Below, piece after piece: positions 1,525 through 61,000 of a stretch of 64,000 nt of DNA. Source of the DNA: a virus. The stretch is taken from positions 64,001 to 128,000 of IMG/VR virus record IMGVR_UViG_3300045988_160394; one strand, given 5' to 3'. The translations under genes were made by a program, and so were the position numbers. How positions within the stretch are numbered: position 1 is the stretch's first letter; every line of letters starts with the position of its first letter. The notes beneath the pieces were generated by a model. It saw nothing but the letters and a program-made list of their open reading frames with translations. It did not search any database and had not been told where the DNA came from.

Positions 1525-1911
1525 ATGATTAAGAATATAGAAAGTCTTCAAAAGATCTTAGAAGAAAGATGGTGCGTACGTAGCATAGAAGAATGTGAAA
1601 AGATATGGCTGAAATATTCTGAAATATATTTAAATGAAAAATGTGGCTATATAAGATCTGATAGAGAATGCTTTGAAGAATCTTTAAATATGGAAGTCAT
1701 TTTAGCTTTAGCAGAAAATTTAGATTTCTTATCTGAATATGCTAAAAACAAAATAAGTCTTCTTAAACAGTTTTCAAATCTTTATGATGATGTAGCAAAA
1801 GATGAAAAAACAAATGAAGATAAAGTAATAAGGTATAAAGAAATAAGCATACTATATTCAGCATTCATAAAAGATATAATAGCCTTAGATGCTTATCATT
1901 ATATACAGTAA
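1525..1911 (+). CDS. hypothetical protein
   Basis: ORF track. GAGGTGG RBS. TAA stop. Confidence 0.6.
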   Translation: MIKNIESLQKILEERWCVRSIEECEKIWLKYSEIYLNEKCGYIRSDRECFEESLNMEVILALAENLDFLSEYAKNKISLLKQFSNLYDDVAKDEKTNEDKVIRYKEISILYSAFIKDIIALDAYHYIQ

Positions 1912-2044
1912 TGAGAAGAGATTTATATGTATGGTATAAGTCGGTATTAGAGAAGCATATATTAAAAATATGTAAAGATATATAAACATTAAATTCTAAG
2001 GGAGGTACTAAATTCCTCCTTTAGAAAAAAATATAAAAAAAGTA

Positions 2045-2073
2045 TTTACAAACATAAATAAATTTGATATATT
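2045..2073 (+). promoter_or_regulatory. sigma70-like promoter upstream of the tRNA array
   Basis: TTTACA (2045-2050), a 17-nt spacer, then TATATT (2068-2073), about 55 nt upstream of the first tRNA. AT-rich DNA yields many chance matches. Confidence 0.4.
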
Positions 2074-2128
2074 ATTTGTGGGACAAGTTTTAACAAATAA
2101 TATCGTAAATAAATATCAAATTTAAATT

Positions 2129-2247
2129 GCGGGTTTCACGTAGTTTGGTTAGCGTTCTGGTCTTCAAAACCAGTGACAGGCACCATGTTCGACATGCTTT
2201 AATGTTTTGGTTATAAGTCTGCGGGGGTTCGAATCCCTCAACCCGTG
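2129..2247 (+). tRNA. suppressor-type tRNA, anticodon UCA (reads UGA), Trp-like, with a ~49-nt insertion between the anticodon and T arms
   Basis: Acceptor GCGGGTT/AACCCGT. D arm ACGT..GCGT with a GG loop. Anticodon arm CTGGT-CTTCAAA-ACCAG, giving anticodon TCA. T arm GGGGG-TTCGAAT-CCCTC. Discriminator G. No encoded CCA. The anticodon arm closely resembles bacterial tRNA-Trp, CCGGU-CUCCAAA-ACCGG. Confidence 0.75.
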
Positions 2248-2317
2248 GTCTCTCATTTAGTAAGCCTCCACGTTGGCGAGAGACGGAAACAAAATTACTA
2301 TTTTGGCTAATTACTAA
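2248..2317 (+). ncRNA. HDV-like (theta-type) self-cleaving ribozyme, copy A, abutting the tRNA(UCA) 3' end
   Basis: Nested double pseudoknot readable by eye.
- P1: GTCTCTC (2248-54) / GAGAGAC (2278-84).
- P2: TTAGTAA (2257-63) / TTACTAA (2311-17).
- P3: GCC/GGC with L3 TCCACGTT.
- P1.1: GG (2285-86) pairs with CC in L3.
- P4: AAAAT-TACT-ATTTT.
- J4/2: GGCTAA with candidate catalytic C 2307.
The core AGCCTCC..TGGCG......GGAAACA parallels the HDV genomic ribozyme, AGCCUCCUCGCUGGCGCCGGCUGGGCAACA. Confidence 0.8.
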
Positions 2318-2339
2318 GAAATCTTTATGGAGGGTTTAT

Positions 2340-2966
2340 ATGGAAGGTTATATTTATAAAATAACTAATAGCTTAAATAATAAATGTTATATAGGCAAAA
2401 CATATAAATCTATCCAACAAAGATGGAAAGAACATTTAAAATCCTGTAAAAAAGGAGAATGTTCTAATAGACCTTTATACAAGGCTATTAATAAATACGG
2501 TGTTGGCAACTTTTCTATAGAAGAATTAGGAAAGTTTGAAGAAGGTATTTTAGAAGAAAAAGAAATATATTATATAGATAAATATGATTCATATAATAAT
2601 GGCTATAACGCTACATTAGGTGGAGATGGGAAAAGATATTTCCAATATACCGATAAAGAAGTTATAGATGAATACCTTAAAACTAAAAACTTAAATATAA
2701 CATCAAAATACTTCAATTGTGATGTAGATACTATAAAAAGAATATTAGAATCTAATAGTATCGAAACATTAACAGCTAAAGAATCTATAAAAAATACTTA
2801 TGGAAGAACAGTATTAAAATATTCTTTAGATGAAGAGTTAATAGCTAAATATGAAACAGTTTCTGACGCAGCTAAAGAATTTGATAAAGGCTCTCCTGGT
2901 TCAATATCAAGATGTTGCAGAGGATTAAGAAAGACATATAAAGGTTTCATATGGAGATATTCTTAG
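2340..2966 (+). CDS. GIY-YIG homing endonuclease (I-TevI-like, free-standing)
   Basis: The N-terminus GYIYKITN...CYIGKT...RWKEH...YNATLGGDG carries the GIY-YIG motifs. GGAGGG RBS. TAG stop. No in-frame TGA. Confidence 0.85.
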   Translation: MEGYIYKITNSLNNKCYIGKTYKSIQQRWKEHLKSCKKGECSNRPLYKAINKYGVGNFSIEELGKFEEGILEEKEIYYIDKYDSYNNGYNATLGGDGKRYFQYTDKEVIDEYLKTKNLNITSKYFNCDVDTIKRILESNSIETLTAKESIKNTYGRTVLKYSLDEELIAKYETVSDAAKEFDKGSPGSISRCCRGLRKTYKGFIWRYS

Positions 2967-3014
2967 TAATAAAGACTTTTTCATACATACATTTCTCATA
3001 ATTGAGTAATATAG

Positions 3015-3040
3015 GTCACAAGTTGAAATATATTTGTGAC
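3015..3040 (+). other. 7-bp hairpin 4 nt upstream of the ribozyme B cleavage site
   Basis: GTCACAA-12 nt-TTGTGAC, followed by TAGC and then ribozyme position G1 (3045). It would form the 3' end of the endonuclease mRNA after cleavage. Confidence 0.5.
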
Positions 3041-3044
3041 TAGC

Positions 3045-3122
3045 GTCTTTCAACTAACAAGCCTCCTCGTGGCGAAAGATGGAAACAGATAGAAGTAAAA
3101 TAATTATCTGGCTAATTGTTAG
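3045..3122 (+). ncRNA. HDV-like (theta-type) self-cleaving ribozyme, copy B
   Basis: - P1: GTCTTTC (3045-51) / GAAAGAT (3074-80), with a G1-U wobble as in HDV.
- P2: CTAACAA (3054-60) / TTGTTAG (3116-22).
- P3: GCC/GGC with L3 TCCTCGT.
- P1.1: GG (3081-82).
- P4: GATA..TATC.
- J4/2: TGGCTAA (C 3112).
The stems differ from copy A only by compensatory changes. Confidence 0.8.
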
Positions 3123-3129
3123 AAAATAT

Positions 3130-3204
3130 TGCGGTATAGCCAAGTGGAAAGGCAGCTGACTTTGACTCAGCTATGCGTAGGTTCAATTCCTACTACCGCT
3201 GCCA
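3130..3204 (+). tRNA. tRNA-Gln (UUG)
   Basis: Cloverleaf with anticodon arm GCTGA-CTTTGAC-TCAGC and T arm GTAGG-TTCAATT-CCTAC. U1/U72, G73, encoded CCA. Confidence 0.8.
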
Positions 3205-3208
3205 ATAA

Positions 3209-3285
3209 TGTGGTGTAGCTCAATCGGTTAGAGCATACGTCTGATAAGCGTAAGGTTACAAGTTCAATTCTTGTCACCACAACCA
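3209..3285 (+). tRNA. tRNA-Ile (GAU)
   Basis: Acceptor TGTGGTG/CACCACA. Anticodon arm TACGT-CTGATAA-GCGTA. T arm ACAAG-TTCAATT-CTTGT. Encoded CCA. Confidence 0.8.
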
Positions 3286-3341
3286 CAACTAGATTAAAAT
3301 ATTCTAGTAAAAATATATGGTGTATATATTTGCGATGTAAA

Positions 3342-3434
3342 TAAGATAAAGCTCAGCCAGGTTAGAGCACATGGGTTATTATGAGGCATTGTAATAATAC
3401 TTTGGAGTCGTGGGTTCAAATCCCACTATCTTAT
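3342..3434 (+). tRNA. tRNA-like gene with an aberrant, elongated anticodon region (pseudo- or non-canonical tRNA)
   Basis: The acceptor TAAGATA/TATCTTA, D arm GCTC-AGCCAGGTTA-GAGC and T arm GTGGG-TTCAAAT-CCCAC are good. There are 41 nt between the D and T arms instead of about 23. That region folds as CATGG..CTTTG plus a TTATTA/TAATAA helix with an 8-10 nt loop containing CAT. Confidence 0.4.
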
Positions 3435-3443
3435 TTATATTAA

Positions 3444-3520
3444 TGCGGTATAGCTTAGTTGGTAAAAGCCCTCGATTCATAACCGAGAGATCACAAGTTC
3501 GAATCTTGTTACCGCAACCA
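3444..3520 (+). tRNA. tRNA with CAU anticodon (elongator Met, or Ile2 if lysidine-modified)
   Basis: Acceptor TGCGGTA/TACCGCA. Anticodon loop TTCATAA. T arm ACAAG-TTCGAAT-CTTGT. Encoded CCA. No initiator features. Confidence 0.8.
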
Positions 3521-3663
3521 TTATATTAAAGGTTGATTCTCCAGCCTGGAGGTGAGAAGTTGATAAAACACTCACTAAACGCCATAAAAGGTAATCACGA
3601 ATGTGAGCGTGTGATTAACTATTTTATATAGTAGAAGAGTCCCTTATCTTCCTCTATTGTTAT

Positions 3664-3738
3664 GGGAATATAGTACAAAGGTTAGTACAATCGGCTGTTA
3701 ACCGATAGATCCTGGTTCGATTCCATGTATTCCCGCCA
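3664..3738 (+). tRNA. tRNA-Asn (GUU)
   Basis: Acceptor GGGAATA/TATTCCC. Anticodon arm ATCGG-CTGTTAA-CCGAT. T loop TTCGATT. Encoded CCA. Confidence 0.8.
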
Positions 3739-3840
3739 TTTACTTACTCTCACATATATCATAAATATATAATTAAATTTTTATTCAACAAAAAGTGTGC
3801 ACTTTATTTAACACAATGACATACTTAAACCCCTGTAATG

Positions 3841-3867
3841 AGAAGTCTCGAAAGAGGCTTCTTTTTA
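3841..3867 (+). terminator. rho-independent terminator closing the tRNA array
   Basis: AGAAGTCTC-GAAA-GAGGCTTCT followed by TTTTT. Confidence 0.7.
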
Positions 3868-3909
3868 TATAGATGGTCTTTTCAAATTAATATAAGGAGA
3901 ATGATTGAT

Positions 3910-5288: not shown

Positions 5289-5395
5289 TTAAATTTTAAT
5301 AAAAAACAAAACTACTTATTCCCATATATGAAAATATATAGTATACTTAGTTTATAAGTTTTAAAAAAATTAAAAAATAAAAAGGTGAGTGTATT

Positions 5396-6172
5396 ATGGA
5401 TAGTGGAAAAATGTTTTTATGCTATGTACCTAAAAAGCATATTACAGATGCTTTAATAGATCAGGTAGACTGATTAATTGAAAACGAATATAGCAATTAT
5501 AATGATTGCGTTATTATAGATAATATAAGTAAGGGATATAGAATATATCCTAATGATTTAAAAGCTATGATGTCTAGATGTAGTTATAGTGAATTATTAG
5601 ATAATATATATGATAATATAAATAAAAATAAAACATCAATTATTTTAAATGATTTTGATATAGATATAGATGATTTAAAAGATGTTTATTCAGAAATTAT
5701 AAAAGAAAAGAATATAACCATTATTATTTTTAATAGCATTAGAACTGATAATGAAGATAAACTTATGATTAAAATTAAAAAAGATTTAAAAGAATTAAAA
5801 GAAGATAAGTGATCTGAATTAAAATCAGAAATCCTTGAACATATTGATGAATATATGGATAGATTTGATTCAAATAATGAAATTTTTGATCCAGAAGAGG
5901 ATAGTGACGATGAAGGGTTACAAGAATTATTAGATTTAATTAGCAAAGAATTATCAGAAGAATGTGAAGAAGATGAAGAATCTTATAATAGATTTGCTTT
6001 AAAAAGTATTAAAGAAAGTTATACTTATCAAAAGAAACAGGATGTATTATCAGTTTCTTTAACTACTGGTAACGACTTAATATTATCTGATGGAGAAGAA
6101 CAAATATTAATAAAAAATAATATGATTAATCATTTGTTAGAAACAATAGAACATATTAGAGGGAAAAAATAA
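5396..6172 (+). CDS. hypothetical acidic protein (two in-frame TGA codons)
   Basis: ATG 5396 with an AAAGGTGAG RBS. One frame joins an unlisted 5' part to ORFs 5567..5812 and 5855..6172 through TGA 5471-73 and TGA 5810-12. TAA stop. Confidence 0.6.
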
Positions 6173-6196
6173 AGTTCAAGGGGAGAATGCAAAAAT

Positions 6197-6877
6197 ATGA
6201 TTAAAGAAGAATATGGTTATTATGAAGATTTAAAAGAATACAGTAATGAGGCAATAGTAAAAAGAATACAGGAAACAGATGATCCTAGACTATGAGATGA
6301 ATTAGATAAAAGAACTAAAAGAGTATTTAGCTCAGTAATGAGAGATGAAGTTCATCCTTATTATAAAGAAAATATGAGAGATGATATCTTAAGCGTATTA
6401 AGAATAGGGTGAGTAAAAGCTGTTAAGACATATGATGAGTCAAAAGCTACAGCTGAATTTGTTCCTTATTGTAGTTTTATTATGTGACAAAATTATAGAA
6501 TGTTTGCTAGAAGAATTACTAAAGAAAAAGTAGGTAATTCAGTTAGAGACGAACCATTATCATGTGTATCAGCAGATGGTTATTCAGATAATGAAAAGAT
6601 GTCACAAGGTTGTATAGACATAATCATGAAACATGATTGTGAAGAATATAAAGCTATAGAATCAAAAGACTTTGTTAATAGCTTATTAGAAAAACTTAAA
6701 GAACATGATGAAGTTCAATATTTGATTATTAAGAAACATTGTATTGAAGGAATAACTCAAAAAGAGTTAGGACAAACATTACAAATGTCGCAATCATATA
6801 TATCAAGAAATATAAAAAAGGGAATGGCATTCTTAAAACAAGAGTTAATACTTGAAGGACAGAAATTAAAGATGTAA
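6197..6877 (+). CDS. sigma-70 family RNA polymerase sigma factor (three in-frame TGA codons)
   Basis: ATG 6197 with an AGGGGAGA RBS. TGAs lie at 6293, 6410 and 6485. Read-through gives a region-2-like segment, LRIGWVKAVKTYDESKATAEFVPYCSFIMWQNYRMFARR. A region-4 HTH, GITQKELGQTLQMSQSYISRNIKKG, follows. Confidence 0.75.
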
Positions 6878-14050: not shown

Positions 14051-15310
14051 TGTTGAAAAATAGTATATATTTTGCAATAATTTATTTTTCATTCATATAG
14101 TAAATATATAAACAGAATTTATTATAAGAATGGAGAAATAATTTTATGAAAAAAACAGAATTTAATGAAACACAAATAAAAGATATAGTTGAAAGATATA
14201 AAAATGGAGAAGCTATTATGAACATTAGAAAAGATTATAATGTTAGTCATAGTACTATTAATAGAGTATTAAAAGAAAATAACGTTGCAATTAGAGGTAA
14301 TAGGAAACATTTTTATAACGAAGATATTTTAAAAAAAATAAATACAGCTGAAAAAGCTTATTGAATAGGATTTATTACAGCAGATGGTTATATTAATGAA
14401 GATAGAAATTTTATGAGAATAAAGCTTCAAGAAAAAGATAAAGATCATTTATATAAATTTATGAAATTTATCGGAGGAGATGAAGGTATGATAAAATATG
14501 AATTTCATAATATAACTGGTAATAAACAATGATATATAGAAGTTAGTGGTAAGACTTTTATTAAGTCGTTAGTAGAATTAGGAATAAGACAGAAAAAAAG
14601 TTCTAATGAGCAATGGTGTAATAAGATTCCAGAAAAATATATAAAAGATTATATAAGAGGAATAATAGATGGAGATGGGCATATATCTTTGGAAAATAAA
14701 AGATTTGACATATGTAATTCAGAATCGTTATTAATACAATTGCAAAATTTCCTAATAAAAGAATATAATACTTCAAAAACAAAAATATATGATCATTGTA
14801 ATACAAAAAGATTGTTTGTAACAGTTAATGCTACAGATATATTGTTTGATTTATATTATAAAAAGTGTGTATCATTAGATAGAAAATATAAAACTGTTAA
14901 AATATTAAAGCAATTAATAGAACTATAATTGCCGTGTATAAATAGGGTAAAATCGGTTCCGACAGCTTAAACAAAAAGATGGATGGTTTAAGTATGGTGG
15001 TATATAAAGAAGAGAGGCTTAATTGCTAATACCGAGGTAAAGATAAGTTTAAAACCTTATGCTCACCGTAACGCATAGACATTGAAACTTTATTAAATTA
15101 AAGAATATAATATGTCCAAGAGTGCCCTACACAGAATTGAAAAATATTCTCCTAGGTCAAGTAATAGCTTGATGTGAAAATGTATGCTAGGCTGGACTAG
15201 AATTAACTAGTCGATGAGGTTAGTTATTAACCAAATGAGTGAAAACTCCAGAGTCAGGTGTAGGAATAGACCTACTATTAATAGATAAAAAGCCCTGAGA
15301 TAATAACATT
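14051..15310 (+). mobile_element. group I intron interrupting gyrA between HPHG and D
   Basis: Exon homology resumes exactly at 15311. The 5' exon ends in T and the intron ends in G. A GC-enriched, helix-rich block (14929-15310) lies downstream of the embedded endonuclease ORF. Confidence 0.75.
14146..14928 (+). CDS. intron-encoded LAGLIDADG homing endonuclease with an N-terminal HTH (two in-frame TGA codons)
   Basis: TGA 14362-64 and TGA 14530-32 join ORFs 14146..14364 and 14689..14928 in one frame. Two LAGLIDADG motifs appear: (W)IGFITADGYI and IRGIIDGDGHI. Confidence 0.8.
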
Positions 15311-17550
15311 CGGATGTATCTGTATATGATACTATAGTTAGAGCTTCTCAAAAGTGGAATATGAGATATCCAATCGTAGATATGCCATCAAATAATGGTT
15401 CTATAGATGGAGATGGAGCAGCTGCTATGAGATATACAGAATGTAGACTAACAGCTTATGGCGAAAAGTTATTAGAAGGTATAAATAAAGAAACAGTTGA
15501 TTTTAAACCTAACTATGATAACTCAGAAACAGAACCTGTTGAACTACCATGTATGCTACCTAACTTATTAGCTAATGGAGTAGAAGGTATAGCAGTTGGT
15601 ATGGCTGCGAATATACCTCCTCATAATTTAACAGAGCTATTAACAGCTGCTAGAAGAATAATAAGTGATGCTAAAGAAGAAAAAGAAACTTCTTTAGAAG
15701 ATTTAATGACTATAATAAAAGGACCAGATTTCCCTGGCGGTGGTATTATAGTTAACAAGAAAAATCTTAAAACAGCTTTTGCTACTGGTAAAGGTAGAAT
15801 AACTTTAAGAGGTAAAACTGATATAGTAGAAGATAAAAAAGGACATAAAACAATAAATATAACTGAAGTCCCTTATCAAGTTAAACCTATTGAATTAGTT
15901 AATAAAATATATACTCTTGCTAGAGATGGGAAAATAGAAGGTATTAAAGAAGTTGAAGATGAATCAGATAAGAACGGTATGTGTTTATCTGTAAAACTTA
16001 AAAAATCAGCTAATCCAACTTTAGTATTAAATAATTTATACAAGTTAACAGATTTACAAAAGAATATAAACTATAATATGAATGCATTAATAGGTGATAC
16101 TCCTGTTGATGTAACATTATTAGATTATTTAAATGAGTATTTATCTAACTCATTAAATATCTTATTAAGAAGAACTAACTTTGATCGTGATAAAGATATG
16201 AAAAGAATATCAAACTTAGAGGTTATATTCTTATATCTTGAAAACAAAGAAGATATAGTTGCAATAATTGCTTCATCAGATAATCCAGAAGAAGAATTAA
16301 AAGAAAAATATGAATTAGCTGATGAACAAATTAGCTTTTTATTAAATACTAGATTAGGTTCTTTAAAGAAAGCTAGTATTTCTAAATATCAAGAAGAATA
16401 TGACCAGTTAAATGAAAATGTAACTGAATATACAAAGATATTAGAAGATGAAGGATATGCTTTAGATGTTCTTTCTAAAGAATTATCTGAATTACAAGAA
16501 CAATTTGGAGATGAAAGAAGAACTCAAATTGAATTAGACGTTAATGGAGATATTGCAGAGGAAGATTTAATTCCAGATGAACCATTAGTTGTTACAATTA
16601 CATCTGATGGCTTAATAAAAGCTGTTGATGAAAAAGAATATAGTACTCAAAAGAGAGGTGGAAAAGGAACTAAAGCAGCATCTACTAAAGATGATGAAAT
16701 AGTAACTGATCTATTCTCTATTAATAGCAAAGATGATATCTTATTTATGACTGATAAAGGAAGATGTCATAAGTTAAAAGGATATTCTATACCTAAAGTA
16801 GGTAAGAATGCTAAAGGAAGACATATTAATAACTTTATTAAGTTAGAAGAAGGCGAAAATATAGTATCTGTTATGCCCGTAAAAATTAAAGATGAAGCAG
16901 AACATTCTATACTATTTGTAACAGCTTTAGGACAAATTAAGAGATTATCTATAAGCGAATTAGGTTCTAGATATACAGCTATTAAAGTTCTAAAGATAAA
17001 AGATGGAGATGGTCTTCAAACTTGTTTAAAAGTTAATGAAGGTCAAGATGTTATGCTTTGTACAGCAAAAGGTCAATCAATAAGATTTACTGTATCAACA
17101 GAAACTAAAAAGCCAATTAGACCTCAAGGAAGAACTGCTTCTGGAGTTATAGGTATAAAAGTAGCTGAAGATGACTATGTTATCGGAGCAACTATCATAG
17201 ATGATGAATCTAATATCTTAACTTTAACTAGCAATGGTTTAAGTAAGCAAACAAAAGGTGCTGCTTGGGAAGCTAAGCAAAGAGGTGGAAAAGGAATACT
17301 TTGTCATAAAATAACAGAGAAAACAGGAGACTTAGTTTCAGTATTATCTGTTAAAGAAGATGATGAATTATTTGTTGGAACTGAATCTGGTAAAATAATC
17401 AGATTAAAAGCTAATTCTATAGCAACTTCAGGAAGATCTGCTATAGGAAGTAAAGCTATTAAGTTAGATGAAGGTGATTATGCATTTACAGCATCTTTAG
17501 CTCCAGCTAACAATGAAGAAGTTGAATTAGAAACTACAGAAGAGGCGTAA
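15311..17550 (+). CDS. gyrA: type IIA topoisomerase subunit A, exon 2 (2-nt frame offset at 15359-15364)
   Basis: 15311-15358 encodes DVSVYDTIVRASQKWN, matching DSAVYDTIVRMAQPFS. The rest, MRYPIVD...AAAMRYTECRL with the catalytic Tyr, is read from ATG 15361 in a different frame, to TAA 17550. Confidence 0.8.
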
Positions 17551-19093: not shown

Positions 19094-19128
19094 CATGGAT
19101 ATTATAAGATTATAGGAGGAGTAATTGT

Positions 19129-19773
19129 ATGACAATGAGTTTAGCAGAGAAAAGAAAGAAAATGTCCCAAATGATGGGGAAAATAAATGATAAGGTAGGT
19201 AAACAAGTAATAGGATTTGCATCAGATCCTGTTATGAAAGATAGATTAACTATCCAATGGATACCTATGCCATCATTAAGAGTTAATGAAGTAACTGGTG
19301 GTGGAATACCTAAAGGTAAGATAAGTGTTGTAGCTGGTGATTCAGATTCAGGTAAAACATCTTTAATGTTAGAAACTATAGGGTTAAACATGAAGAATAA
19401 TCCTGACTTTATGGCTTTATGGTTAGAATCAGAAGAATCTCTAGAGTTAGAAGCTTTAGAAAATGTTTTTGGTATTGATTTAGATAGATTCGTAGTAATA
19501 TATCTAGATAGAGATGGAGCAGCAGAAGTAGCTTTAGATAGATTAGAAGCTGCTTTAGGTATGGGTGTATTCGATATGTGTGTAATAAACTCATTAAAAT
19601 GTTTAACACCATCTACTGAATTTGAAAAAGCTATGGGTGAAGCTACTATAGGTATACAAGCTAGAATGAATGGTAAACTTATGAGAAAGATGACTACGTT
19701 AATAGCAGAACACGGTTGTGCTTTTGTATTAATAAACCATCTTACTACTGAGATAGGTAAAATGCATGGAGAT
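19129..19773 (+). CDS. recA: RecA/UvsX-like recombinase, exon 1
   Basis: Walker A GDSDSGKTS. Walker B CVINSLK. QARMNGKLMRKM. Ends ...EIGKMHGD before intron sequence. Confidence 0.8.
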
Positions 19774-20931
19774 TTTGCGTTAGCTGGATAATTAGTGATA
19801 TCTCATATAATAAGATATGAGGTGATAAAATTGAGATATAAATGGACTCAAAAAAAAGTAGATTTATTAAAAAAATATTATGAAGAAGGTTTAAGTAATA
19901 AAGAAATAGCTAATAAAATGGGTACTACTGTTCATAGTGTTTCTGGGAAAGCTAAAGAACTTAAATTGAGAAAAAATTTATCAAAAGTATATAATTTATT
20001 AACTGATAAAGAAAAAGAATATATAAAAGCCAATAGTTTAAAAAAATCTATCACTCAGATAGCAAAAGATCTGAATAGAGATAAAGAAACAATAAATAAG
20101 TATATTAAACAAAATAATTTAGTTACAAAATTTAATTTATTTGATCATTTAATGACTAATGAGGAATTTGTTAAAGATTTTAAAAATCCTTCATTATCAC
20201 ATGCTTTTTTAGGTAGAAAATATAATGTTACTGATTGAGTTATAAGAAAATGAAGGTTAGCAAACATAGGTAATTACAAACAAATGACAGATACTTATTT
20301 ATGTAAGTCAACTTCTGAATTAGAGGTTGAAAAAATATTAGAAGAATTAGATTTGGCTTATATTTATGAAAAGAAAATTCTTGATTGAAAAGTAGATTAT
20401 TACTTAGGCTTTAAAACTATAATAGAAGTTCAAGGTGATTACTGGCATAATCTTGATAAGGTAAAAGAAAAAGATAAACGTAAATTTAAAGAACTTCGAG
20501 ATAATGGATTTACTATTATAGAAATATGAGAAAGTGAATTATCAAATATAGATTTAATAAAAACTAAGATATTATCCAATTTTAGGGTCTCCCTTAAGGA
20601 GTAATTCTTAAGTAAAAAACTTGGTGAACTGTTTGCTTAACAGGTGTGCAATTAACGTTAAAGTAGCTATAGTAAATGATAGTTAATAATTGTGCTAACA
20701 GGGAACATTGCTAACGGCAATCCTGTGCCAAGACTTATTATCATGATAAGTAAGGTCAAGAGACTATCGAAAACAAATAATAAATATAACTCCTATAAGG
20801 AGAATAAGGTATTGTAGGATACACGAAGTGAGTAGAGTACGGTAGAGATAAGCACTACTGGAAGTGCCAAGTCCCTTATTAGTATTAAGGGTAAAGATAT
20901 AGTCCGACATCATAAAATAATTGTGATGTTG
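19774..20931 (+). mobile_element. group I intron interrupting the recA-like gene
   Basis: Exon 2 resumes at 20932, giving GD|PLVLAGGRAIRYSS. The 5' exon ends in T and the intron ends in G. AAGATATAGTCCGAC (20894-20908) matches the J8/7-P7 consensus of group I introns (Tetrahymena AAGATATAGTCGGAC). Confidence 0.8.
19831..20604 (+). CDS. intron-encoded homing endonuclease, N-terminal HTH plus C-terminal Vsr-like PD-(D/E)XK domain (four in-frame TGA codons)
   Basis: TGAs at 20236, 20251, 20386 and 20527. Read-through gives ...VDYYLGFKTIIEVQGDYWHNLDK...LRDNGFTIIEIWESEL, which resembles Vsr FVHGCFWH...VWECEL. The start is ambiguous (TTG 19831 after GAGGTGA, or GTG 19795). TAA stop at 20602-04. 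Confidence 0.65.
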
Positions 20932-21528
20932 CCATTAGTTTTAGCTGGAGGTAGAGCTATAAGATATTCTTCTATGCTTACTTTAGATATAAGAAAAAGA
21001 TCTATTCAAGAAGCAGATCCTGTATCTAGAGATGAAGGTATGAAGATAGGAGTTACTATAAATAAAAATCACTGTAGACAAGATAGAATGCCTTATTTAA
21101 AAACAGAATATTTCGTTGTTTATGGACAAGGTACAGAACGTTCTATAGAAATAATAGAATTAGCTGAAAAGTGTGGTATTCTAACTAAAAAAGGTTCTTG
21201 GTATAGAGAATATTCAGGAGAAACTGATAGTAAAGGAAATCCTATAGAAAGAATTTTATCAGATGGAACTAAAGCTGCTTGGAATGGTATGAAAAATACT
21301 AGAGCATATATCTTAAGTCATCCAGAATATTTTGATTATCTAGTAAATAAAGTTGAAAACTTTGGTCAAATAGATGTCGAAACTCTATCAGAAGAAGAAA
21401 TTCAAAGATTAGAAGAAGAACATAAGTTAGAAGAAGCTTCAGCTAGTGAACAAGATATAACTCTTGATGATATAATACAAGATCCTGATACAACTGAAAC
21501 AAAAAAATCTACTAAGAAAAAGAAATAA
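20932..21528 (+). CDS. recA: RecA/UvsX-like recombinase, exon 2
   Basis: PLVLAGGRAIRYSSMLTLDIRKRS matches RecA ..TTGGnALKFYaSvRldiRR. Acidic C-terminal tail. TAA stop. Confidence 0.8.
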   Translation, partial: PLVLAGGRAIRYSSMLTLDIRKRSIQEADPVSRDEGMKIGVTINKNHCRQDRMPYLKTEYFVVYGQGTERSIEIIELAEKCGILTKKGSWYREYSGETDSKGNPIERILSDGTKAAWNGMKNTRAYILSHPEYFDYLVNKVENFGQIDVETLSEEEIQRLEEEHKLEEASASEQDITLDDIIQDPDTTETKKSTKKKK

Positions 21529-25041: not shown

Positions 25042-25092
25042 CAGAATAGTTAATTGATAATATAGATAATTGGAATTAGGAGGAATAAAACC

Positions 25093-27285
25093 ATGAGAAC
25101 AATGTTATTATTTAGAGGAGCCCCAGGTTGTGGGAAATCTACTCTTATTAAAGAATTAGGAATAGAACCTTATACATTATCAGCTGATGATATAAGATTA
25201 TTATTACAATCACCTCAGCTTAATGTAGATGGAACTTATTCTATTTCACAAGATAGCGAAAGTAAGACTTGGGAAATATTATTCGAAGCATTAGAAAATA
25301 GAATGTCTAGAGGAGAGTTTGTTGCTATAGATGCTACTAACTCAAAAACATCTGATATGACAAGATATAGAGATTTAGCAGATCAATATAGATATAGAAT
25401 TTATATAAAAGATTTAACAGATCTTCCTATAGAAGAATGTAAAAGAAGAAATGCTAATAGATTACCTGAATATAAAAGAGTACCAGAAGAAGTTATTGAT
25501 AATCAATATGCTAGATTCGCTACTCAAGGTATTCCAGGAAGAATTAAAAAGCTAGTAACAGATGATATTATAAAAGAAATGTCATTTGATATTATAGATT
25601 TCTCAGATTATGAAGCAGTACATGTTATAGGTGATATTCATGGATGTTATTCTGCATTAAAACAACTTATGGATGAAATATGGAATGAAAATCATTTATA
25701 CATTTTTACTGGAGACTATCTAGATAGAGGTATAGAAAATGCAGAAACTTTAAATTTTATATTTGATTTATCTGAAAATAAGAATACAATATTCTTAGAG
25801 GGTAATCATGAATTAGGTTTAAGAAACTGGGCAAATGATTTACCTGTTAAATCTAGAGAATTTAATAAAAGAACATTACCTCAAATAGATGGTAGGGTTA
25901 GTAAAAAGAAAGCTAGAATGTTCTGTAGGAATTTAAGACAATTTGCTTACTTTAAATATGGAGAAAATGTTATATTGTGTACTCATGGAGGTGTTCCTTT
26001 AGTTCCAGATAAATTATTATTTTTTCCAACTAGAAACTTTATAAATGGTATAGGAACATATCAAGAAGCTTTAGATGTAGATATGGCTTTTGAAACAAAT
26101 ATGCCAGAAAACTATATTCAAATTCATGGACATAGAAATATGGATGATATCCCTATAAATTCTACAGGAACATGGAGAAGTTTTAACTTAGAAGGTCAAG
26201 TAGAATTAGGTGGAGAATTAAGAGCCGTGTCTTTCTTTAAAGAAAATAAAATAAAAACTCATGAAATAAAAAATGATGTTTTTAGAACATATGAAGCAGA
26301 TATTCCTGATAGAGTATATAAAGAAATGACAGATGAAATGATGTTTGACATTATGGATTCTAATGAAATGGTTACTAGAAAAACATTTAAGAATGGTATG
26401 TGTAGTTTTAACTTTAAACAAACTGTATTCCAAGGAAGATTATGGGATACAGCAACTGTTAAAGCAAGAGGACTATTTTTTGACGTTGAATCAAAGAAGA
26501 TAGTATTAAGAAGTTATGATAAATTCTTTAACATTGGGGAGAGAACAAATACAAAGATCCACAACTTAAGAAATAATTTAACCTTCCCAGTTAAAGAATT
26601 TTTAAAATATAATGGCTATTTAGGGTTAGTAGGACTTCATAATGATGAATTTGTATTCGCTTCTAAATCTTCTATTAAGAATGAACATTCTAAATGGTTA
26701 GAAGATATATTTATGTTAAGAACTACTGAAGAACAAAGAAAAGCTATAAAAGAATTTATAAAAGCTACAAATACAACATTTGTATTTGAAGTGATAGACC
26801 CAGAAAATGATCCGCACATTATAAAATATAAAGAAAAAGATATAATATTATTAGATATTGTATTAAATAAACCTATATTTGAAAAAGTTCCTTATGAATC
26901 AGCTATTATGCTTGCTAAAAAGTTTGGACTTAAATATAAAGAATTAGTTAATGAATTTGACAACTGCTTAGATTTTTATACTAATTATTTAGAAACTTTA
27001 AAACCAGATTATCTTTACAATAATAAAGAAATAGAAGGTTTTGTAATAGAAGATAGTGAAGGCTTTATGACTAAGTCAAAGCTAACTTTCTATAAACAAT
27101 GGAAAATGTTAAGGGATTTAGCTCATAGATATCTTAAATATGAGCATATTAAATCAACATCTGCTTTAACTACTCCAGAAATGAATTATTTCTATGGATG
27201 GTTAAAGGATCAACCAAAAGAAGAAGTAAAAGGCAAAGATATCATATCACTTAGAGATATGTTTTATAAAAATTTTAAAAAATAA
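25093..27285 (+). CDS. pnkp: trifunctional RNA repair enzyme: polynucleotide kinase, metallophosphatase, RNA ligase (bacterial Pnkp architecture)
   Basis: N-terminal P-loop GAPGCGKST. Central calcineurin-type motifs GDIHGC, GDYLDRG, GNHE. C-terminal nucleotidyltransferase domain with a KYNGY (KxxG-type) motif. Confidence 0.75.
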   Translation: MRTMLLFRGAPGCGKSTLIKELGIEPYTLSADDIRLLLQSPQLNVDGTYSISQDSESKTWEILFEALENRMSRGEFVAIDATNSKTSDMTRYRDLADQYRYRIYIKDLTDLPIEECKRRNANRLPEYKRVPEEVIDNQYARFATQGIPGRIKKLVTDDIIKEMSFDIIDFSDYEAVHVIGDIHGCYSALKQLMDEIWNENHLYIFTGDYLDRGIENAETLNFIFDLSENKNTIFLEGNHELGLRNWANDLPVKSREFNKRTLPQIDGRVSKKKARMFCRNLRQFAYFKYGENVILCTHGGVPLVPDKLLFFPTRNFINGIGTYQEALDVDMAFETNMPENYIQIHGHRNMDDIPINSTGTWRSFNLEGQVELGGELRAVSFFKENKIKTHEIKNDVFRTYEADIPDRVYKEMTDEMMFDIMDSNEMVTRKTFKNGMCSFNFKQTVFQGRLWDTATVKARGLFFDVESKKIVLRSYDKFFNIGERTNTKIHNLRNNLTFPVKEFLKYNGYLGLVGLHNDEFVFASKSSIKNEHSKWLEDIFMLRTTEEQRKAIKEFIKATNTTFVFEVIDPENDPHIIKYKEKDIILLDIVLNKPIFEKVPYESAIMLAKKFGLKYKELVNEFDNCLDFYTNYLETLKPDYLYNNKEIEGFVIEDSEGFMTKSKLTFYKQWKMLRDLAHRYLKYEHIKSTSALTTPEMNYFYGWLKDQPKEEVKGKDIISLRDMFYKNFKK

Positions 27286-37439: not shown

Positions 37440-37715
37440 ATGACTTTTGAAAAATATTGTAATGGAGTAATTGAAGATTTTATTGAAGATGTTGAGTTAA
37501 AACTATGTCTAGAACTAACTCAAGATCAGAAAGATGATATTTATACAGCTATGGAAGAACATAAAGAATGTTTTGAAGAAGAATATGAATCTTTCTGTAA
37601 AGAAGACGCTGAAATGATTATTTCTGTTATATATTCTGAATCAGTTGCTATAGAATGTATGAATTGTAATGAAACAATTATAGATACTGATGTTTTGTTT
37701 TTAGGTAATGAATAA
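37440..37715 (+). CDS. hypothetical acidic protein
   Basis: ORF track. GGAGGAGG RBS. Confidence 0.5.
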   Translation: MTFEKYCNGVIEDFIEDVELKLCLELTQDQKDDIYTAMEEHKECFEEEYESFCKEDAEMIISVIYSESVAIECMNCNETIIDTDVLFLGNE

Positions 37716-39382
37716 TGATAGAAGTAAAAGATTATGGACATTATTATAATGTATCATTCAATGGAGATAAGGATAATTATCATAAATTTTTTAACTTTAT
37801 GGTATCTAAAGATGATATTGTAAAATTAAAAAAGAAAACTGGATGAAAGATGCCTAAATGTTATTTACCTGAATTAGAAGAAACATTTAATAATGTTGTT
37901 GAATTAATAGCTAATCCTTGGGATTATATAGGGGAAGGTTTAAAACTTTCTCCATATTGTTATCAAAAAGAAACAATTAAATTTGGAGTAGATAATAAAA
38001 AAGGTCTATTAATTTTGCCTTGTGGTTCTGGTAAAACACCTATTCTTGTAGGTATATATCATGAACTTAGAAAGAATAATTTAACTACTAAACCAGGAGC
38101 AATTATTGTTAAAGCATCTTTAAAGTATCAATGAGTGAAAGAAGTAGAAAAATTTTCAGATTATATAGCAAAAGCCATAGAAACTCCTTCTAAAGTTAAA
38201 AAGAAATTTGATGAGCAATTTGAAAACGCTGATTTATTTATATTAAATTATGAAACATTAAAGAATAAACAAGTAGCTGCTAAGTTAAGAGAGAAGAATG
38301 TAGAAGTAATGCTATTAGACGAAATACATTACATAAACAATCATACCTCTGCTAGAAGTAAAGCTGCTTATGAATTTAATGATTTGAAGTATTTAATAGG
38401 GGCTACTGCTACGCCAATTACTAATAACCCAGAAAATTTATTTGGAATATTTAATCTTATAGAAAAAGATCTATTCCAGTCCCACAGTAAATTTGCTAGG
38501 TCATATATAAAATATGCTGGTTATGGAAGAGTAGCTGGTTGCAAAAATGAAGATCATTTAAAGAAGAAGATAGCTCCATATATATTTATTAAAAGCGAAG
38601 CAGATGTTGCTGATCAATTGCCATCTCTTGTTGTTAATCAAAAATATTGTTATATTACTAGTCCTATTATGCAAGAAACTAATGCTAAATTGTTTGAGGA
38701 ATTAGATGTAGTCAATAATCAAATTAAACAATTAGAGAAAAGATATCCTAATCCAAAAGATTTAGAATCTAATGAAGAGTTTTTAACAGCTAAAGGTAAG
38801 GTAATGGCATATCAAACTTTTCTACAAGAATTAGTAGACGATCCTAGATTATTAAATGAATCAGAAAGTAATTTAGCTAAACAATATCATTGTCAAGAAG
38901 AATCTCCTAAGTTAAAAATGCTATTTGAACTAGTAGAAGAAATAACTGAAGCTGGTAGTAAAGTATGCATATTTACTAAGTATGTTCGTATGCAAAACAT
39001 ATTACAAAGGGAATTGGAAAGATATTTCGATTTTAAATGTGTTATAATTAATGGCAGTATGACTCCAGAAGAAAGATACGAAGCTGCTTATACTAAATTT
39101 GGAGACAATGATGATTATAAAGTATTGATAGGTACTGATGCTATGGCAGAAGGAATATCTTTATCTAAGTGTAATTATCTTATAGAATATGATTTAGCAG
39201 ATTCATATGCCATTCAGACACAAAGACATGGTAGAATAAAAAGAGCTAATTCAGTTCATAAAACTGGATACGTATATCAATTGATATGCGTAGATAGTTG
39301 GGATGAAGTACAGCAAAAGATAATAGCTAAAAAAGAGAATTATGATAATAATTTAATACAGAATATAGGAGAGTGAAAATAA
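37715..39382 (+). CDS. SNF2-family helicase (three in-frame TGA codons)
   Basis: ATG 37715 (TAATG overlap). TGAs at 37847, 38132 and 39374 join an unlisted 5' part to ORFs 37850..38134 and 38135..39376. PCGSGKT. ASLKYQ[W]VKEVEKF matches the SNF2 QW..E motif. LLDEIHYI. Motif VI QRHGRIKR. True stop TAA 39380-82. Confidence 0.8.
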
Positions 39383-57781: not shown

Positions 57782-58090
57782 ATGGCTTTACATTTAAAAA
57801 GAATAACAGATCCGTATTTTTGTTGTCATTGTGACATAACTAGAAAAATGCTTGTTTATGGAGACTATTATTATGAGGATGATGAAGACGGATTTATTGT
57901 AGATTATAACTATTATTATGATAGAAAGATGGCTCAGAAAACTGCTGAAGCTTTACAAAATCCAGAGATTCAACATGCTTTAGATTCTATGTCTTATAAA
58001 ATGCAAATGAGAGAAGCAGAAAGAGCATTTTTTGATAAGAATTTATTTAAAAGAAAAATAGCTACAGATATGGTTCATAAGGAGGAATAA
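57782..58090 (+). CDS. hypothetical protein
   Basis: ORF track. AAGGAGG RBS. Confidence 0.5.
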   Translation: MALHLKRITDPYFCCHCDITRKMLVYGDYYYEDDEDGFIVDYNYYYDRKMAQKTAEALQNPEIQHALDSMSYKMQMREAERAFFDKNLFKRKIATDMVHKEE

Positions 58091-58092
58091 TA

Positions 58093-61000
58093 ATGCCACC
58101 TATTAATAAGATACCATTTAAAGTGAAATTAATGTCAGAATCATTAGCTGGCAAAAGTTATGATAAATCTAATATATCAAAACAATTTATTGTAATACAC
58201 AATATGGTTGGAACATCTGAAAGTTCCCTAAAATATTGGAATAGTGGCTCAGGTGGTCAATACACTTCTGCACATTATTGTGTAGATGATAAAGAAATTT
58301 GGCAAACTTTAAAAGATCAATGAGCAGGTCGACATTGTGGGAAACCTAGTCCTTGGGCAACTTTAAAGGGATGTAATAATAATACCTCTATTGGTATAGA
58401 AATAGCAGATATGCTTTGTAACCAAAAACAAGCTGTAGATAATGCTATTGATGTCGCTAGACATTTAGCAAAAGTTCATGGGATTCCATATGAAAATATT
58501 GTTAGACATAAGGATGTGTCTAATACTGATTGCCCAAAATGGATAGAAAGTCATAATTTATGGGATTATTTTAAAAAAGAAGTAGAAAGAAGAGATCAAG
58601 AAAACGTAGAATTGTGTTATGATCCTTCTACCGCAATATCTGGAGATGTTACACCAGGAGACAACGGTACTGCGTCACCAGAGACAGGTGGAAGTCAAAC
58701 TCTTCCTAACTTTGATAATAGGGAAGATTGAACAAATCTAAAAGAAATAAAAGGTGTTGTATTAGTTTGCATGCCTCCTCAACATTTTACTACTTTAAAA
58801 GATAAAGATGAAAAATGGGCAAAAGAAAAGTATGCTAAGGAGTTCCATTTTCTATATGATACTGAATGGAAAGAAGGTAAAGAAAAAACCTTAATAGCTA
58901 GATCATTGTTAGATAATGATAGGCACACTTATATAGAAAGAGCTTTATATAATAATAAAGCAGAAAAATCAGTATTAAGTGTAGGTATGTTTTTACCTCC
59001 TATGTTAGATGATTATCCAGCCTATGAAAAAAAATTAATAGATAATTTAGGCAAAGTAATTTATGAGAATAAATTAAACACTAAAGATCTATGGAGAGAA
59101 TTTGATTTCAATAGGACACCATCACCATTTATGTATCTTGATAGAGAACAATGGAAAAAGTTTTTAAGAGAGATAGATAAGCAAGTTAAATGGAGATATG
59201 AGAAATTTGGAGAACCTCTTCAACCAGAGAAAGATCCAACTCAAGATAATACTGATTATTCAAATATAAAAGAGAATATAGGTAAAGAAACAGTTACTTC
59301 AAGATATTGCTTATTAAGAGCAAATCCTAGCATGACTAGCCCAATAATACTGGCTTTAGAAAAGGATGTGCCTTTAACAATTACAGATGCAGATACTAGA
59401 GGCTATTATAAAGTTAAATTAGCAACAAATCAAAAAGAAGGTTGGTTAGTCGCTAAGAGCGTTAAAATAGAAAAAGAAGAAGAAAAAGCTACTTTAAAAC
59501 CATTAGTATTAGCTGCTGTTAAAGAAAAAGATATTCCTCAGCCAGAGATAACTCCAACTATGACTCATGACCAATATTTAAAATGGAAAGAACTAACCGA
59601 TCCTAAATTAATAGATGAATTTGTTGGAGAGTGTGAACCTTACGATAAAGGACTAAAAGAAATCATAGATTCAGCTGTTAAAAATGATGATAGATTAACA
59701 TCTTTAACTAAGAATATGGAAACAGAGAATAACTCTACTATTAATTATTCAGTTACAGAAGCATCACCAGGAGATTCTGGTCATTGTGTTAAGCCTTCTG
59801 CTGAACTTAATGTATTAATAAAACCTAGAGAATCTATAAAAGTAGATCCTGTTTATCCTGATTTAATTGTTCCTCCAAATTACACTCCAACTGATTATAA
59901 TATAAGGTCTCAAAATTCTATTCCTATGGCTACATTAGAAGACGGATCTTTAATAAAAGACGCTAAAGATTTCGATAATGATCAATTAACGTTTGATTAT
60001 GAGCTATTAAATGATAAGAAAAAGATATCTAAAGGTAAACCTATTAACTATTTGGACCCTTATCCATATGATGATAAAATAATAGAACTAGAAAAACATC
60101 ATCCTAAAGTAAAGATAGATGAAATAGAAGCTAGACTATATGAAAGCAATCATCCAGGGGACCCTAGTTCACAACCAATGGCTAAAAATTTTGCATTGGT
60201 TTATGATGCTATGTTAAAACAATCTAGTAGTATAGAGAAAAGACTTGTGAAGATAGAAAATGTATTAGCTAATGTATTACGTAATCAAGGTAGAATTGGT
60301 TCAAGAATAAACGTAAATTGTGTTTATTATGGAGGTCAAGACTCCTTTGGAAAATATAAAACAATTAGATGTTTATGTGATGATAGAATACATGATGCAA
60401 GTTCTGTTACATTAGACCAATGTTTATCTTGTACTAGATACGAACCTATCTTAGGACAAGTATATGATATTCTAGATGATACAGGTATGAATGGAACTGT
60501 ATTCTTAGATAACATGCAAATGGGTTATATGAATTTAGATGATTTAAAAAATCTTAATAGAGTTGAAAAAAGATGTACTTCTAATGAATATGCAAATGTT
60601 AATAAAGAGATGGAAAAACCAGAATCTCAAATTAAGAGATGGGAAGAATCTGATAAGAAGATATATATAGAATCTCTTAAGAAAAAGATTACTGACGAAA
60701 AGGAATTAGATAAAAAGATAAAAGAGATAAAACAAGAAGATTATAGCTTCAAAATGAATTGGTATGAGCAAGATTTAGATGTTCAAGAACCAGATGTAAA
60801 ACCTTATCCATTAGAGGGAATTAAAGCTAGGTATAAAAAAATAAATCTAAGTAATCCAGGAGAAGAATCAGATAACTATCTAGAAAAAGAATCTGTATTA
60901 GATGATTCTACAGATCAAGATACTATAAAAGATATGACTGATTTAGAGAAATTAAATAATGGAGAATGGGTTGATACTAGAGAGGAAGCTGATACTACTG

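Follow-up and report, generated by a model that had tools for sequence, protein, structure and literature searches.

A probable homing-endonuclease cassette headed by a theta ribozyme in a phage tRNA operon

Introduction

Theta ribozymes, a minimal form of the hepatitis delta virus (HDV)-like ribozyme, abut the 3' ends of phage tRNAs, and four of them self-cleave in vitro (Kienbeck et al. 2024, PMC10879173). Of those that are associated with suppressor tRNAs, 99.7% lie by UAG suppressors, with no code-4 case (PMC10879173). Why theta ribozymes sit at only some tRNAs, and why one ribozyme is found by different tRNAs, was left unexplained in this 2024 description. The subject of the present analysis is a 64,000-nucleotide (nt) stretch of viral DNA with a G+C content of 28% (positions 64,001 to 128,000 of the IMG/VR record IMGVR_UViG_3300045988_160394, here called the window), in which two HDV-like ribozymes, copy A and copy B, flank a GIY-YIG homing-endonuclease gene inside an array of tRNA genes. 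The locus is probably a phage tRNA operon that has been invaded by a homing-endonuclease cassette carrying its own theta ribozyme. The argument is built on how the ribozymes fold and covary, on an insertion that is polymorphic between strains, on how widely the module recurs, and on other lineages that show direct repeats and empty sites. The element class, the theta ribozyme, is known; a homing-endonuclease cassette headed by a ribozyme appears to be undescribed, and the titles and abstracts of the literature retrieved contain no link between theta, other HDV-like or self-cleaving ribozymes and homing endonucleases or GIY-YIG proteins in phages.

A presence/absence cassette behind an opal suppressor tRNA

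The central features of the locus are the following.

2129-2247, plus strand: tRNA(UCA), an opal suppressor whose variable region holds a conserved 46-nt insertion; discriminator G2247 (Rfam tRNA model, 47.9 bits)
2248-2317, plus strand: theta (HDV-like) ribozyme copy A; predicted cleavage 5' of G2248; catalytic C 2307
2248-2981, plus strand: presence/absence cassette of 734 nt, made up of copy A, a ribosome-binding site, the endonuclease gene and a 15-nt tail (blastn colinearity)
2329-2333, plus strand: ribosome-binding site GGAGG, separated from copy A by 11 nt and from the ATG by 6 nt
2340-2966, plus strand: GIY-YIG homing endonuclease gene, 208 amino acids (aa), with an I-TevI-like catalytic domain and a weak NUMOD1 match
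2982-3044, plus strand: resident spacer with a hairpin (3015-3040) and a TAGC tail, which may be a decayed tRNA(CAU)
3045-3122, plus strand: theta (HDV-like) ribozyme copy B, resident; predicted cleavage 5' of G3045; catalytic C 3112
3130-3204, plus strand: tRNA-Gln

The first base of copy A directly abuts the discriminator of tRNA(UCA), as delimited by the Rfam tRNA match (2129-2247). The endonuclease open reading frame (ORF) is flanked by ribozymes at +22 nt (copy A) and -78 nt (copy B), and the 78-nt tail between its stop codon and copy B contains the hairpin at 3015-3040 followed by TAGC. The end of copy B is separated by 7 nt from the start of tRNA-Gln at 3130. The position and motifs of copy B, the endonuclease ORF, the hairpin, its 4-nt tail and the 7-nt gap had been given in a preliminary description of this DNA, and all of them are found in the sequence.

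Contigs of the same phage from other samples were found via a neighbouring 183-aa protein. By blastn, two of these, L022 and L023, match the window colinearly over 1-2247 and again from 2982 on, at 98.5-99% identity, and lack exactly positions 2248-2981, in place of which stands a single C. In both, tRNA(UCA) carries an encoded CCA and is followed by the same 62-nt spacer with its hairpin, a 100% identical copy B and tRNA-Gln; the cassette-free L022-type allele reads …CCCGTGCCATACATAC…. Copy A and the endonuclease gene therefore come and go together in this phage. A comparison with endonuclease-less relatives had been proposed in the preliminary description as a way to see what occupies the position between the ribozymes, and these two strains answer it: the spacer, the hairpin and copy B follow tRNA(UCA), and copy A is missing together with the endonuclease gene. 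They also directly demonstrate what had been put forward there as an alternative, that the endonuclease gene invaded the array. Blastn of positions 1950-3800 against INPHARED phages returned tRNA-level matches only and no relative, and an IMG/VR search with the flanking proteins and the 3' half of tRNA(UCA) returned no match.

The two ribozymes

Copies A and B both parse wholly into the nested double pseudoknot of an HDV-like ribozyme, with P1, J1/2, P2, P3, L3, P1.1, P4, J4/2 and the catalytic C. The stems of copy A are P1 GTCTCTC/GAGAGAC, P2 TTAGTAA/TTACTAA, P3 GCC/GGC, P1.1 CC/GG and P4 CAAAAT/ATTTTG, and those of copy B include P1 GTCTTTC/GAAAGAT (with a G1.U pair), P2 CTAACAA/TTGTTAG and P4 CAGATA/TATCTG. 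By sequence, C2307 and C3112 are present within GGCUAA, and G2248 and G3045 at position +1. The minimum-free-energy fold recovers P1, P3 and P4, and the core pattern occurs twice in the window and not once in 100 shuffles. In a 2-kb search, both copies gave full-length matches to the Rfam model RF02682 (HDV-F-prausnitzii), copy A with 31.4 bits (E-value 1.9e-3) and copy B with 36 bits (E-value 1.7e-4); both scores lie below the gathering score of 44 of this model, which represents a narrow subfamily. A covariance model built in this analysis (R1), in which P2 is not included, has the two copies as its only matches in the window, with 64.6 and 66.4 bits, in the array also with filters off. P2 was assessed in 10 of the 18 R1 matches that a first descriptor had missed or parsed differently; under a looser parsing rule the P2 pairing of these 10 is mostly kept (five at 6/7 and one each at 7/7, 6/6 and 4/5).

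Between copies A and B, seven stem pairs are altered on both sides, one G-C pair has become G.U and none is broken. The earlier claim that the copies differ by nothing but compensatory changes thus holds for the stems and not for the unpaired parts, where J1/2 is not the same, L3 shows one substitution and an indel of 1 nt, and the P4 loop is 4 nt long in copy A and 13 nt long in copy B. In an alignment of 10 family members all 23 pairs are kept (100% of cells) and 17 of the 23 covary, a value that none of 500 shuffles reached, in a test that is partly circular because several of the sequences were chosen by a descriptor that requires pairing. This agrees with the structural selection on the ribozymes that had been proposed from the two copies, and the predicted folds support the view that both are bona fide HDV-like ribozymes.

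Judged by sequence, both copies belong to the theta ribozyme kind. The published definition of a tRNA-associated theta ribozyme places the cleavage site at most 5 nt from a tRNA 3' end. For copy A this distance is 0 nt from the end of tRNA(UCA) at 2247. Copy B counts as isolated in the window, and its ortholog in the more distant relative L020 lies 1 nt from the tRNA. With its 13-nt P4 loop, copy B may fall outside the RNArobo descriptor of Kienbeck et al., which specifies a short L4 and a short J1/2. Neither copy is found in the searched part of the sequence lists in the supplementary text of PMC10879173.

The endonuclease gene

The ORF at 2340-2966 is intact and scores 37.4 bits against the GIY-YIG family PF01541 (cutoff 22.6). 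Over residues 2-91 in both proteins, its product matches the I-TevI catalytic domain (1mk0, E-value 2e-12), and Y6, Y17, G19, R28, H32, E75 and N90 are invariant among 35 relatives. The assignment of a DNA-binding module (NUMOD or helix-turn-helix) is less distinct, as the match to NUMOD1 has 17.2 bits and lies below the cutoff of 22.8; several relatives carry PF07453. On these profile and domain matches the ORF encodes an I-TevI-like GIY-YIG homing endonuclease, and its first designation as such is upheld. Related GIY-YIG genes vary in presence between colinear genomes not only in the window versus L022 and L023 but also in L222/L189, in L088/L145 and in L058 versus 31 empty sites. An IMG/VR search with the single endonuclease protein found only three distant loci, all without tRNAs. 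In other phages, related endonuclease genes carry in-frame TAG or TGA codons.

Recurrence of the tRNA, ribozyme and endonuclease module

Relatives of the endonuclease with 35-50% identity were taken from metagenomes as 80 loci. In 61 of the 80 a tRNA on the same strand ends within 200 nt upstream of the endonuclease gene, and in about one third of them an R1 ribozyme starts 0-2 nt after the tRNA and ends 11-68 nt before the start codon. In the non-redundant set of this endonuclease-selected sample a ribozyme follows the adjoining upstream tRNA at 13 of 53 loci, compared with 4 of 275 other tRNAs (odds ratio 22, p 2e-8). The full set before de-duplication has 6 ribozymes at 331 other tRNAs, and three of these actually precede a second endonuclease paralog. 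A second sample was selected on the ribozyme in order to avoid the bias of selecting on the endonuclease: IMG/VR was searched with the core pattern and the 49 hits that satisfy the fold were kept. An endonuclease gene of this family lies 8-68 nt downstream of 16 of these 49, and after de-duplication such a gene is found within 150 nt of 11 of 31 tRNA-ribozyme units versus 2 of 249 tRNAs without a ribozyme (odds ratio 68, p 3e-10).

The idea that the ribozymes are generic markers of a boundary between tRNA and non-tRNA sequence was considered separately and is unsupported: a further tRNA is found within 40 nt in 3 of 31 cases with a ribozyme and in 56 of 244 without (p = 0.11). No other known ribozyme class was detected by Rfam searches in E-value mode in those tRNA-endonuclease gaps that lack a theta match.

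Theta ribozymes with UUC instead of UCC in L3 and GU instead of GG in P1.1 (…CCTTCACGTGG…GTTTTTACTAA) form a subclass that occurs between a tRNA and an endonuclease gene in L037, L040, L043, L044, L046, L075, L077, L082, L085 and L102. Every example seen is upstream of an endonuclease gene, and those genes are slightly closer to each other. Endonuclease clade and ribozyme subclass are associated (48.1% versus 42.1% aa identity, permutation p about 0.001), which is a hint only because phage relatedness confounds the comparison. Other RNA elements also occupy the position ahead of the endonuclease gene. In L078 a related gene is immediately preceded by an int-alpA RNA (1055-1121; RF02996, 38 bits, gathering score 35.8), similar motifs are seen in L057, L031/L032 and L044, and two further recurring unclassified motifs share the position in L049/L054/L070 and in L030/L093. 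In L042 a theta ribozyme (1348-1403) ends 10 nt before a ROOL RNA (1413-2012; RF03087, 291.9 bits), which suggests that ribozyme cleavage forms the ROOL 5' end.

Joint movement of ribozyme and endonuclease gene

In at least six independent lineages with different tRNAs (L058/L190, L099, L075, L137/L147, L222 and L067), direct repeats of 12-17 nt of the tRNA 3' end enclose the ribozyme together with the endonuclease gene. The first repeat copy ends at the ribozyme G1 and the second begins 0-12 nt after the stop codon. Where an endonuclease gene comes after a tRNA with no ribozyme (16 cases), such a repeat is absent throughout. The tRNA-Met lineage provides the empty state as well: in 31 IMG/VR contigs the tRNA is joined straight to the same downstream flank, and none of the 31 has a ribozyme core within 200 nt downstream. 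Five of these contigs were aligned to the filled allele, with left-side identity of up to 99.9%; they lack the endonuclease gene, and the filled allele equals the empty one plus 718 nt. The left edge of this insertion is the ribozyme G1 immediately after the tRNA, as it is in the window. That a ribozyme heads the mRNA of a mobile element, as the preliminary description had envisaged, is strongly backed by the recurrence of the module, its enrichment, the repeats and the empty sites in relatives.

Several observations weigh against the reading of the locus as invaded by a cassette with its own ribozyme. No ribozyme lies upstream of about two thirds of the related endonuclease genes, and about two thirds of the ribozymes lack an endonuclease gene downstream. 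The cassette junction in the window is not a clean insertion, as one C of L022 is replaced, and the cassette has no flanking direct repeat; it is therefore conceivable that an ancestor resembling the window lost the ribozyme and the endonuclease gene together. In the window and in L015 (the closest endonuclease-bearing relative) no direct repeat of the tRNA 3' end follows the endonuclease gene. In copy A, G1 pairs with C (G1.U in most relatives) and L3 is 8 nt long. The ribozymes most like copy A belong to its own phage group (copy B and L015 5419-5533) and are not those beside distant endonuclease relatives, a pattern that local recombination among ribozyme copies would explain as well as import. 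In two sets of colinear genomes, L222 versus L189 and L088 versus L145, L161 and L115, only the endonuclease gene is gained or lost and the alleles share the ribozyme, so the two can also separate. These indels, which sit 4 nt (L222/L189) and 11 nt (L088 set) after the shared ribozyme, can be read either as loss of the endonuclease gene, with the ribozyme left on its own, or as the arrival of that gene by itself. Finally, cleavage, co-transcription and homing themselves are inferred from the sequence.

From the same observations it could be argued that theta ribozymes belong to the tRNAs and that the endonuclease gene is a separate invader, which either inserts downstream of them or is tolerated there; its recognition site might include conserved ribozyme DNA, or the position might simply be harmless and transcribed. 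Copy A would then have been there first and L022 would be a deletion derivative. The endonuclease-only indels after a resident ribozyme are what this would predict, the likeness of copy A to other ribozymes of this phage group fits it, and closely related endonuclease genes are found behind different tRNAs and different ribozymes of one subclass. However, the indel between the window and L022 begins exactly at the ribozyme G1 and not past the ribozyme, the direct repeats of the six or more lineages take in both elements, the 31 empty sites are without both, and ribozyme-only alleles are equally explained by loss of the endonuclease gene. A separate invader is on balance unlikely.

Copy B as a resident ribozyme

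The spacer and copy B have a different history from the cassette. In L020 tRNA(UCA) and a single C are followed directly by a ribozyme with 96% identity to copy B, as against only 72-82% for the flanks. L015, whose endonuclease shares 77% aa identity with that of the window and whose ribosome-binding site is arranged likewise, reads tRNA(UCA), ribozyme, endonuclease gene, 5 nt and tRNA-Gln, with no spacer and no copy B. The retention of copy B in the endonuclease-less alleles indicates that it is resident and constrained regardless of the endonuclease, and the comparison of L015, L020, L022 and L023 indicates that the bracket of two ribozymes is not a conserved design.

The bracket had originally drawn attention to the locus as a possible excision device, in which both ribozymes would belong to the endonuclease cassette and would have evolved to release a discrete mRNA from the tRNA precursor. 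Within the window this is an attractive picture, given that both copies look competent, that they flank the ORF closely on either side and that the hairpin sits just before the 3' cut. Yet copy B and the hairpin persist unchanged without an endonuclease gene in L022 and L023, the L020 ortholog of copy B directly serves as neighbour of tRNA(UCA), L015 has the endonuclease gene and no copy B, and among about 87 related endonuclease genes a downstream ribozyme is found in one further case only (L042), there behind a tRNA. A purpose-built bracket is already largely refuted by L015, L020 and L022 and must be regarded as highly unlikely. That one or both copies are inactive relics, with host RNases doing the processing and the arrangement having no consequence for the transcript, is scarcely credible: the scores below the Rfam gathering threshold, the G1-C pair and longer L3 of copy A, and the position of the L022 copy B, 62 nt away from a tRNA with an encoded CCA, would suit it, but compensatory change keeps all pairs, the catalytic C and the P1.1 pairs are intact, and copy B has stayed 96-100% conserved between flanks that have diverged to 72-82%.

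The spacer may be what remains of a tRNA. It folds with z = -2.1, and the hairpin with its tail shares TCACAAGTT with the T-arm of tRNA-Met and has the loop CTCATAA. A local-alignment test of the spacer (2982-3044) against 13 tRNAs gave p = 0.11, and no Rfam tRNA match was found in it at E-values up to 10.

Proposed processing and mobility

Three further features bear on how the cassette may be expressed.

2045-2073, plus strand: promoter-like site with a TG extension, TTTACA and TATATT being 17 nt apart (a consensus match only), conserved in L015, L020 and L022
3840-3863, plus strand: terminator-like hairpin followed by a T run, marking the operon end
25066-27285 (stop to stop), plus strand: gene for an RNA-repair protein of 739 aa in which the domains polynucleotide kinase (AAA_33), calcineurin-like phosphoesterase (Metallophos) and T4-type RNA ligase are combined

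A single phage tRNA operon can be read in positions 2045-3863, with a putative promoter near 2045 and a putative terminator near 3850. In a promoter consensus scan of the locus the sole good site lies upstream of tRNA(UCA). The preliminary description had considered that the endonuclease might be transcribed from a promoter of its own; no promoter-like consensus site was found between tRNA(UCA) and the ORF (2248-2340), so that co-transcription followed by ribozyme processing is the natural reading.

What follows is deduced from sequence and from the chemistry of HDV-like ribozymes as regards self-cleavage in vivo, co-transcription, end healing, CCA addition and the activity and target of the endonuclease. 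It is proposed that the cassette consists of a theta ribozyme, that is a minimal HDV-like ribozyme, and a free-standing GIY-YIG gene placed exactly after the discriminator of tRNA(UCA). Copy A would cut the primary transcript at its own 5' end (2247/2248). This single cut would give tRNA(UCA), which would otherwise bear a trailer of about 800 nt, its proper 3' end at the discriminator again, and at the same time would free an endonuclease mRNA whose leader is the folded ribozyme with a 5'-OH, the ribosome-binding site following 11 nt on. Copy B would ancestrally have been the 3'-processing ribozyme of tRNA(UCA), or of a tRNA that has since decayed. Its cut at 3044/3045 would end the endonuclease mRNA after the hairpin, and copy B itself would stay on the tRNA-Gln precursor until removed by RNase P. 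The cleaved tRNA would then need removal of its cyclic phosphate and addition of CCA. The classical role of proteins that combine kinase, phosphoesterase and RNA ligase is the repair of nuclease-damaged tRNAs. The protein encoded at 25066-27285 could, judging by its domains, also heal the 2',3'-cyclic phosphate and 5'-OH ends made by the ribozymes. As for mobility, the endonuclease presumably cuts near the tRNA 3' end in alleles that lack the cassette, and repair templated by the filled allele would copy the ribozyme and the endonuclease gene together.

A broader proposal can be put forward more tentatively, as a possibility for which the odds are somewhat short of even. Theta ribozyme and GIY-YIG gene together may constitute a widespread composite mobile element that inserts at phage tRNA 3' ends and restores the tRNA end, in which case many of the catalogued theta ribozymes would be filled sites or ribozyme-only footprints. 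If this is true, such footprints would stem from a cycle of invasion, endonuclease decay and loss and would not be devices for tRNA regulation evolved by the phage, and the occurrence of one ribozyme sequence beside tRNAs of many isotypes would be explained (PMC10879173). To the question of why theta ribozymes sit at only some tRNAs it offers a testable answer, namely that they travel with, or are left behind by, homing endonucleases, a proposal that is based on the odds ratios of 22-68, the joint insertion polymorphisms, the direct repeats and the empty sites. Besides introns and inteins, homing endonucleases would then have a third means of residing in an essential RNA gene without harm. A single self-cleavage instead of splicing would silence the insertion, which would add a strategy to those of selfish endonucleases, and the arrangement would amount to a natural design for expressing a protein from within a tRNA operon.

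Other features of the array and the genome

The remainder of the array contains the following.

3209-3285, plus strand: tRNA-Ile
3336-3440, plus strand: tRNA-like RNA
3444-3520, plus strand: tRNA-Met
near 3640-3660, plus strand: tRNA-Ser remnant
3664-3738, plus strand: tRNA-Asn

The tRNA(UCA) gene is missed by ARAGORN, and its detection is owed to the Rfam tRNA model (47.9 bits). The gene is nearly the same in L015 (3792-3909), L020 (5675-5793) and L022 (6167-6285), and the 46-nt insertion in its variable region, near-invariant among these relatives, folds with z = -0.6. The tRNA-like RNA at 3336-3440 has acceptor, D and T arms, and in place of the anticodon arm it has a hairpin of about 12 bp with a 4-nt loop (z = -3.85); it is also conserved in L022. 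The array is otherwise in flux, as the comparison with L022 (6745-6890) shows. The tRNA-Met gene (3444-3520) is missing in L022 and present in L023. Of tRNA-Ser(GCU) the window retains the 3' end only (CCCTTATCTTCCTC, about 3640-3660) and L022 the 5' part only, with an intact gene in L020. The array of L020 also contains a weak match to drum RNA (6071-6193; RF02958, 39.2 bits against a gathering score of 43), and a similar sequence lies at about 5190-5300 in L015.

UGA is partly a sense codon in this phage, as in-frame TGA codons occur in the long ORFs at 5381-6172, 6173-6877, 14128-14928, 19792-20604, 37709-39382 and 58081-62247. The endonuclease gene of L015 has a TGA (L015 4610-4627) at a position where the window protein has Trp, which suggests that UGA is read as Trp. 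The genome is also rich in intervening elements. RecA appears to be split, with an N-terminal part at 19108-19788, RecA_C at 20836-21525 and a TGA-rich ORF between them (region 19108-21528). The match to GyrA begins at profile position 48, just after another TGA-containing ORF (14128-17550), and a Cpn60 with a Hom_end intein lies upstream in the same contig (L021). A skipping-rope RNA is found at 63183-63266 (RF02924, 57.6 bits, above the gathering score). Among the other loci, L018 (1-2906) has a LAGLIDADG ORF that interrupts the gene for RtcB, which ligates 2',3'-cyclic phosphate and 5'-OH ends; this gene adjoins a tRNA array with a related endonuclease gene, and L057 (2655-3571) has another array with three group I intron matches.

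Comparison with known systems

The closest described system is that of the theta ribozymes (PMC10879173), with which the ribozymes of the window share the fold, the conserved core and a cleavage site that abuts a tRNA 3' end, in copy A and in the L020 ortholog of copy B. The linkage with a suppressor tRNA, a stop-codon-recoded phage and RNA-repair genes is shared as well. In contrast to the published cases, the ribozyme here is coupled to a GIY-YIG gene and behaves like a component of an insertion, whereas PMC10879173 is silent on endonucleases and on genes downstream of the ribozymes. The suppressor here reads UGA, which is rare next to a theta ribozyme in the published survey, and both copies in the window retain a real P4 stem.

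T4 SegB is likewise encoded by a free-standing GIY-YIG gene among phage tRNA genes and is variably present between related phages (PMC2330249; PMC13096335). Co-conversion of flanking DNA of the tRNA region is expected in both systems. The endonuclease family here is I-TevI-like by sequence. No ribozyme is known to lie beside segB.

In twin-ribozyme introns a small ribozyme, GIR1, likewise lies just 5' of a homing-endonuclease ORF and makes the mRNA 5' end within the transcript of a host RNA gene (PMC2219692, PMC4167309). GIR1 forms a lariat cap, whereas the ribozyme here is HDV-like and would leave a 5'-OH; here the host RNA would be rescued by cleavage at its 3' end and not by splicing, and the twin-ribozyme introns are nucleolar, unlike this bacterial, phage-borne case. 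Rfam gave no match to a group I intron or to GIR1 in 1900-3900 at E-values up to 10, and the likeness to GIR1 is a functional analogy only. In R2, L1Tc and other non-long terminal repeat retrotransposons (cited in PMC10879173) an HDV-like ribozyme similarly cuts the RNA of the element from a co-transcript with a host gene and stays as the folded 5' end of the mRNA. The element here differs in being a DNA-based homing element without a reverse transcriptase, in having a tRNA gene instead of an rRNA gene as its host, and in that the cut would also serve the upstream host RNA. With the endonucleases of group I introns and inteins, finally, it shares the general principle that a selfish gene is combined with a self-processing element which makes the insertion phenotypically silent, but here this would be achieved by one self-cleavage at the gene boundary instead of excision and re-ligation.

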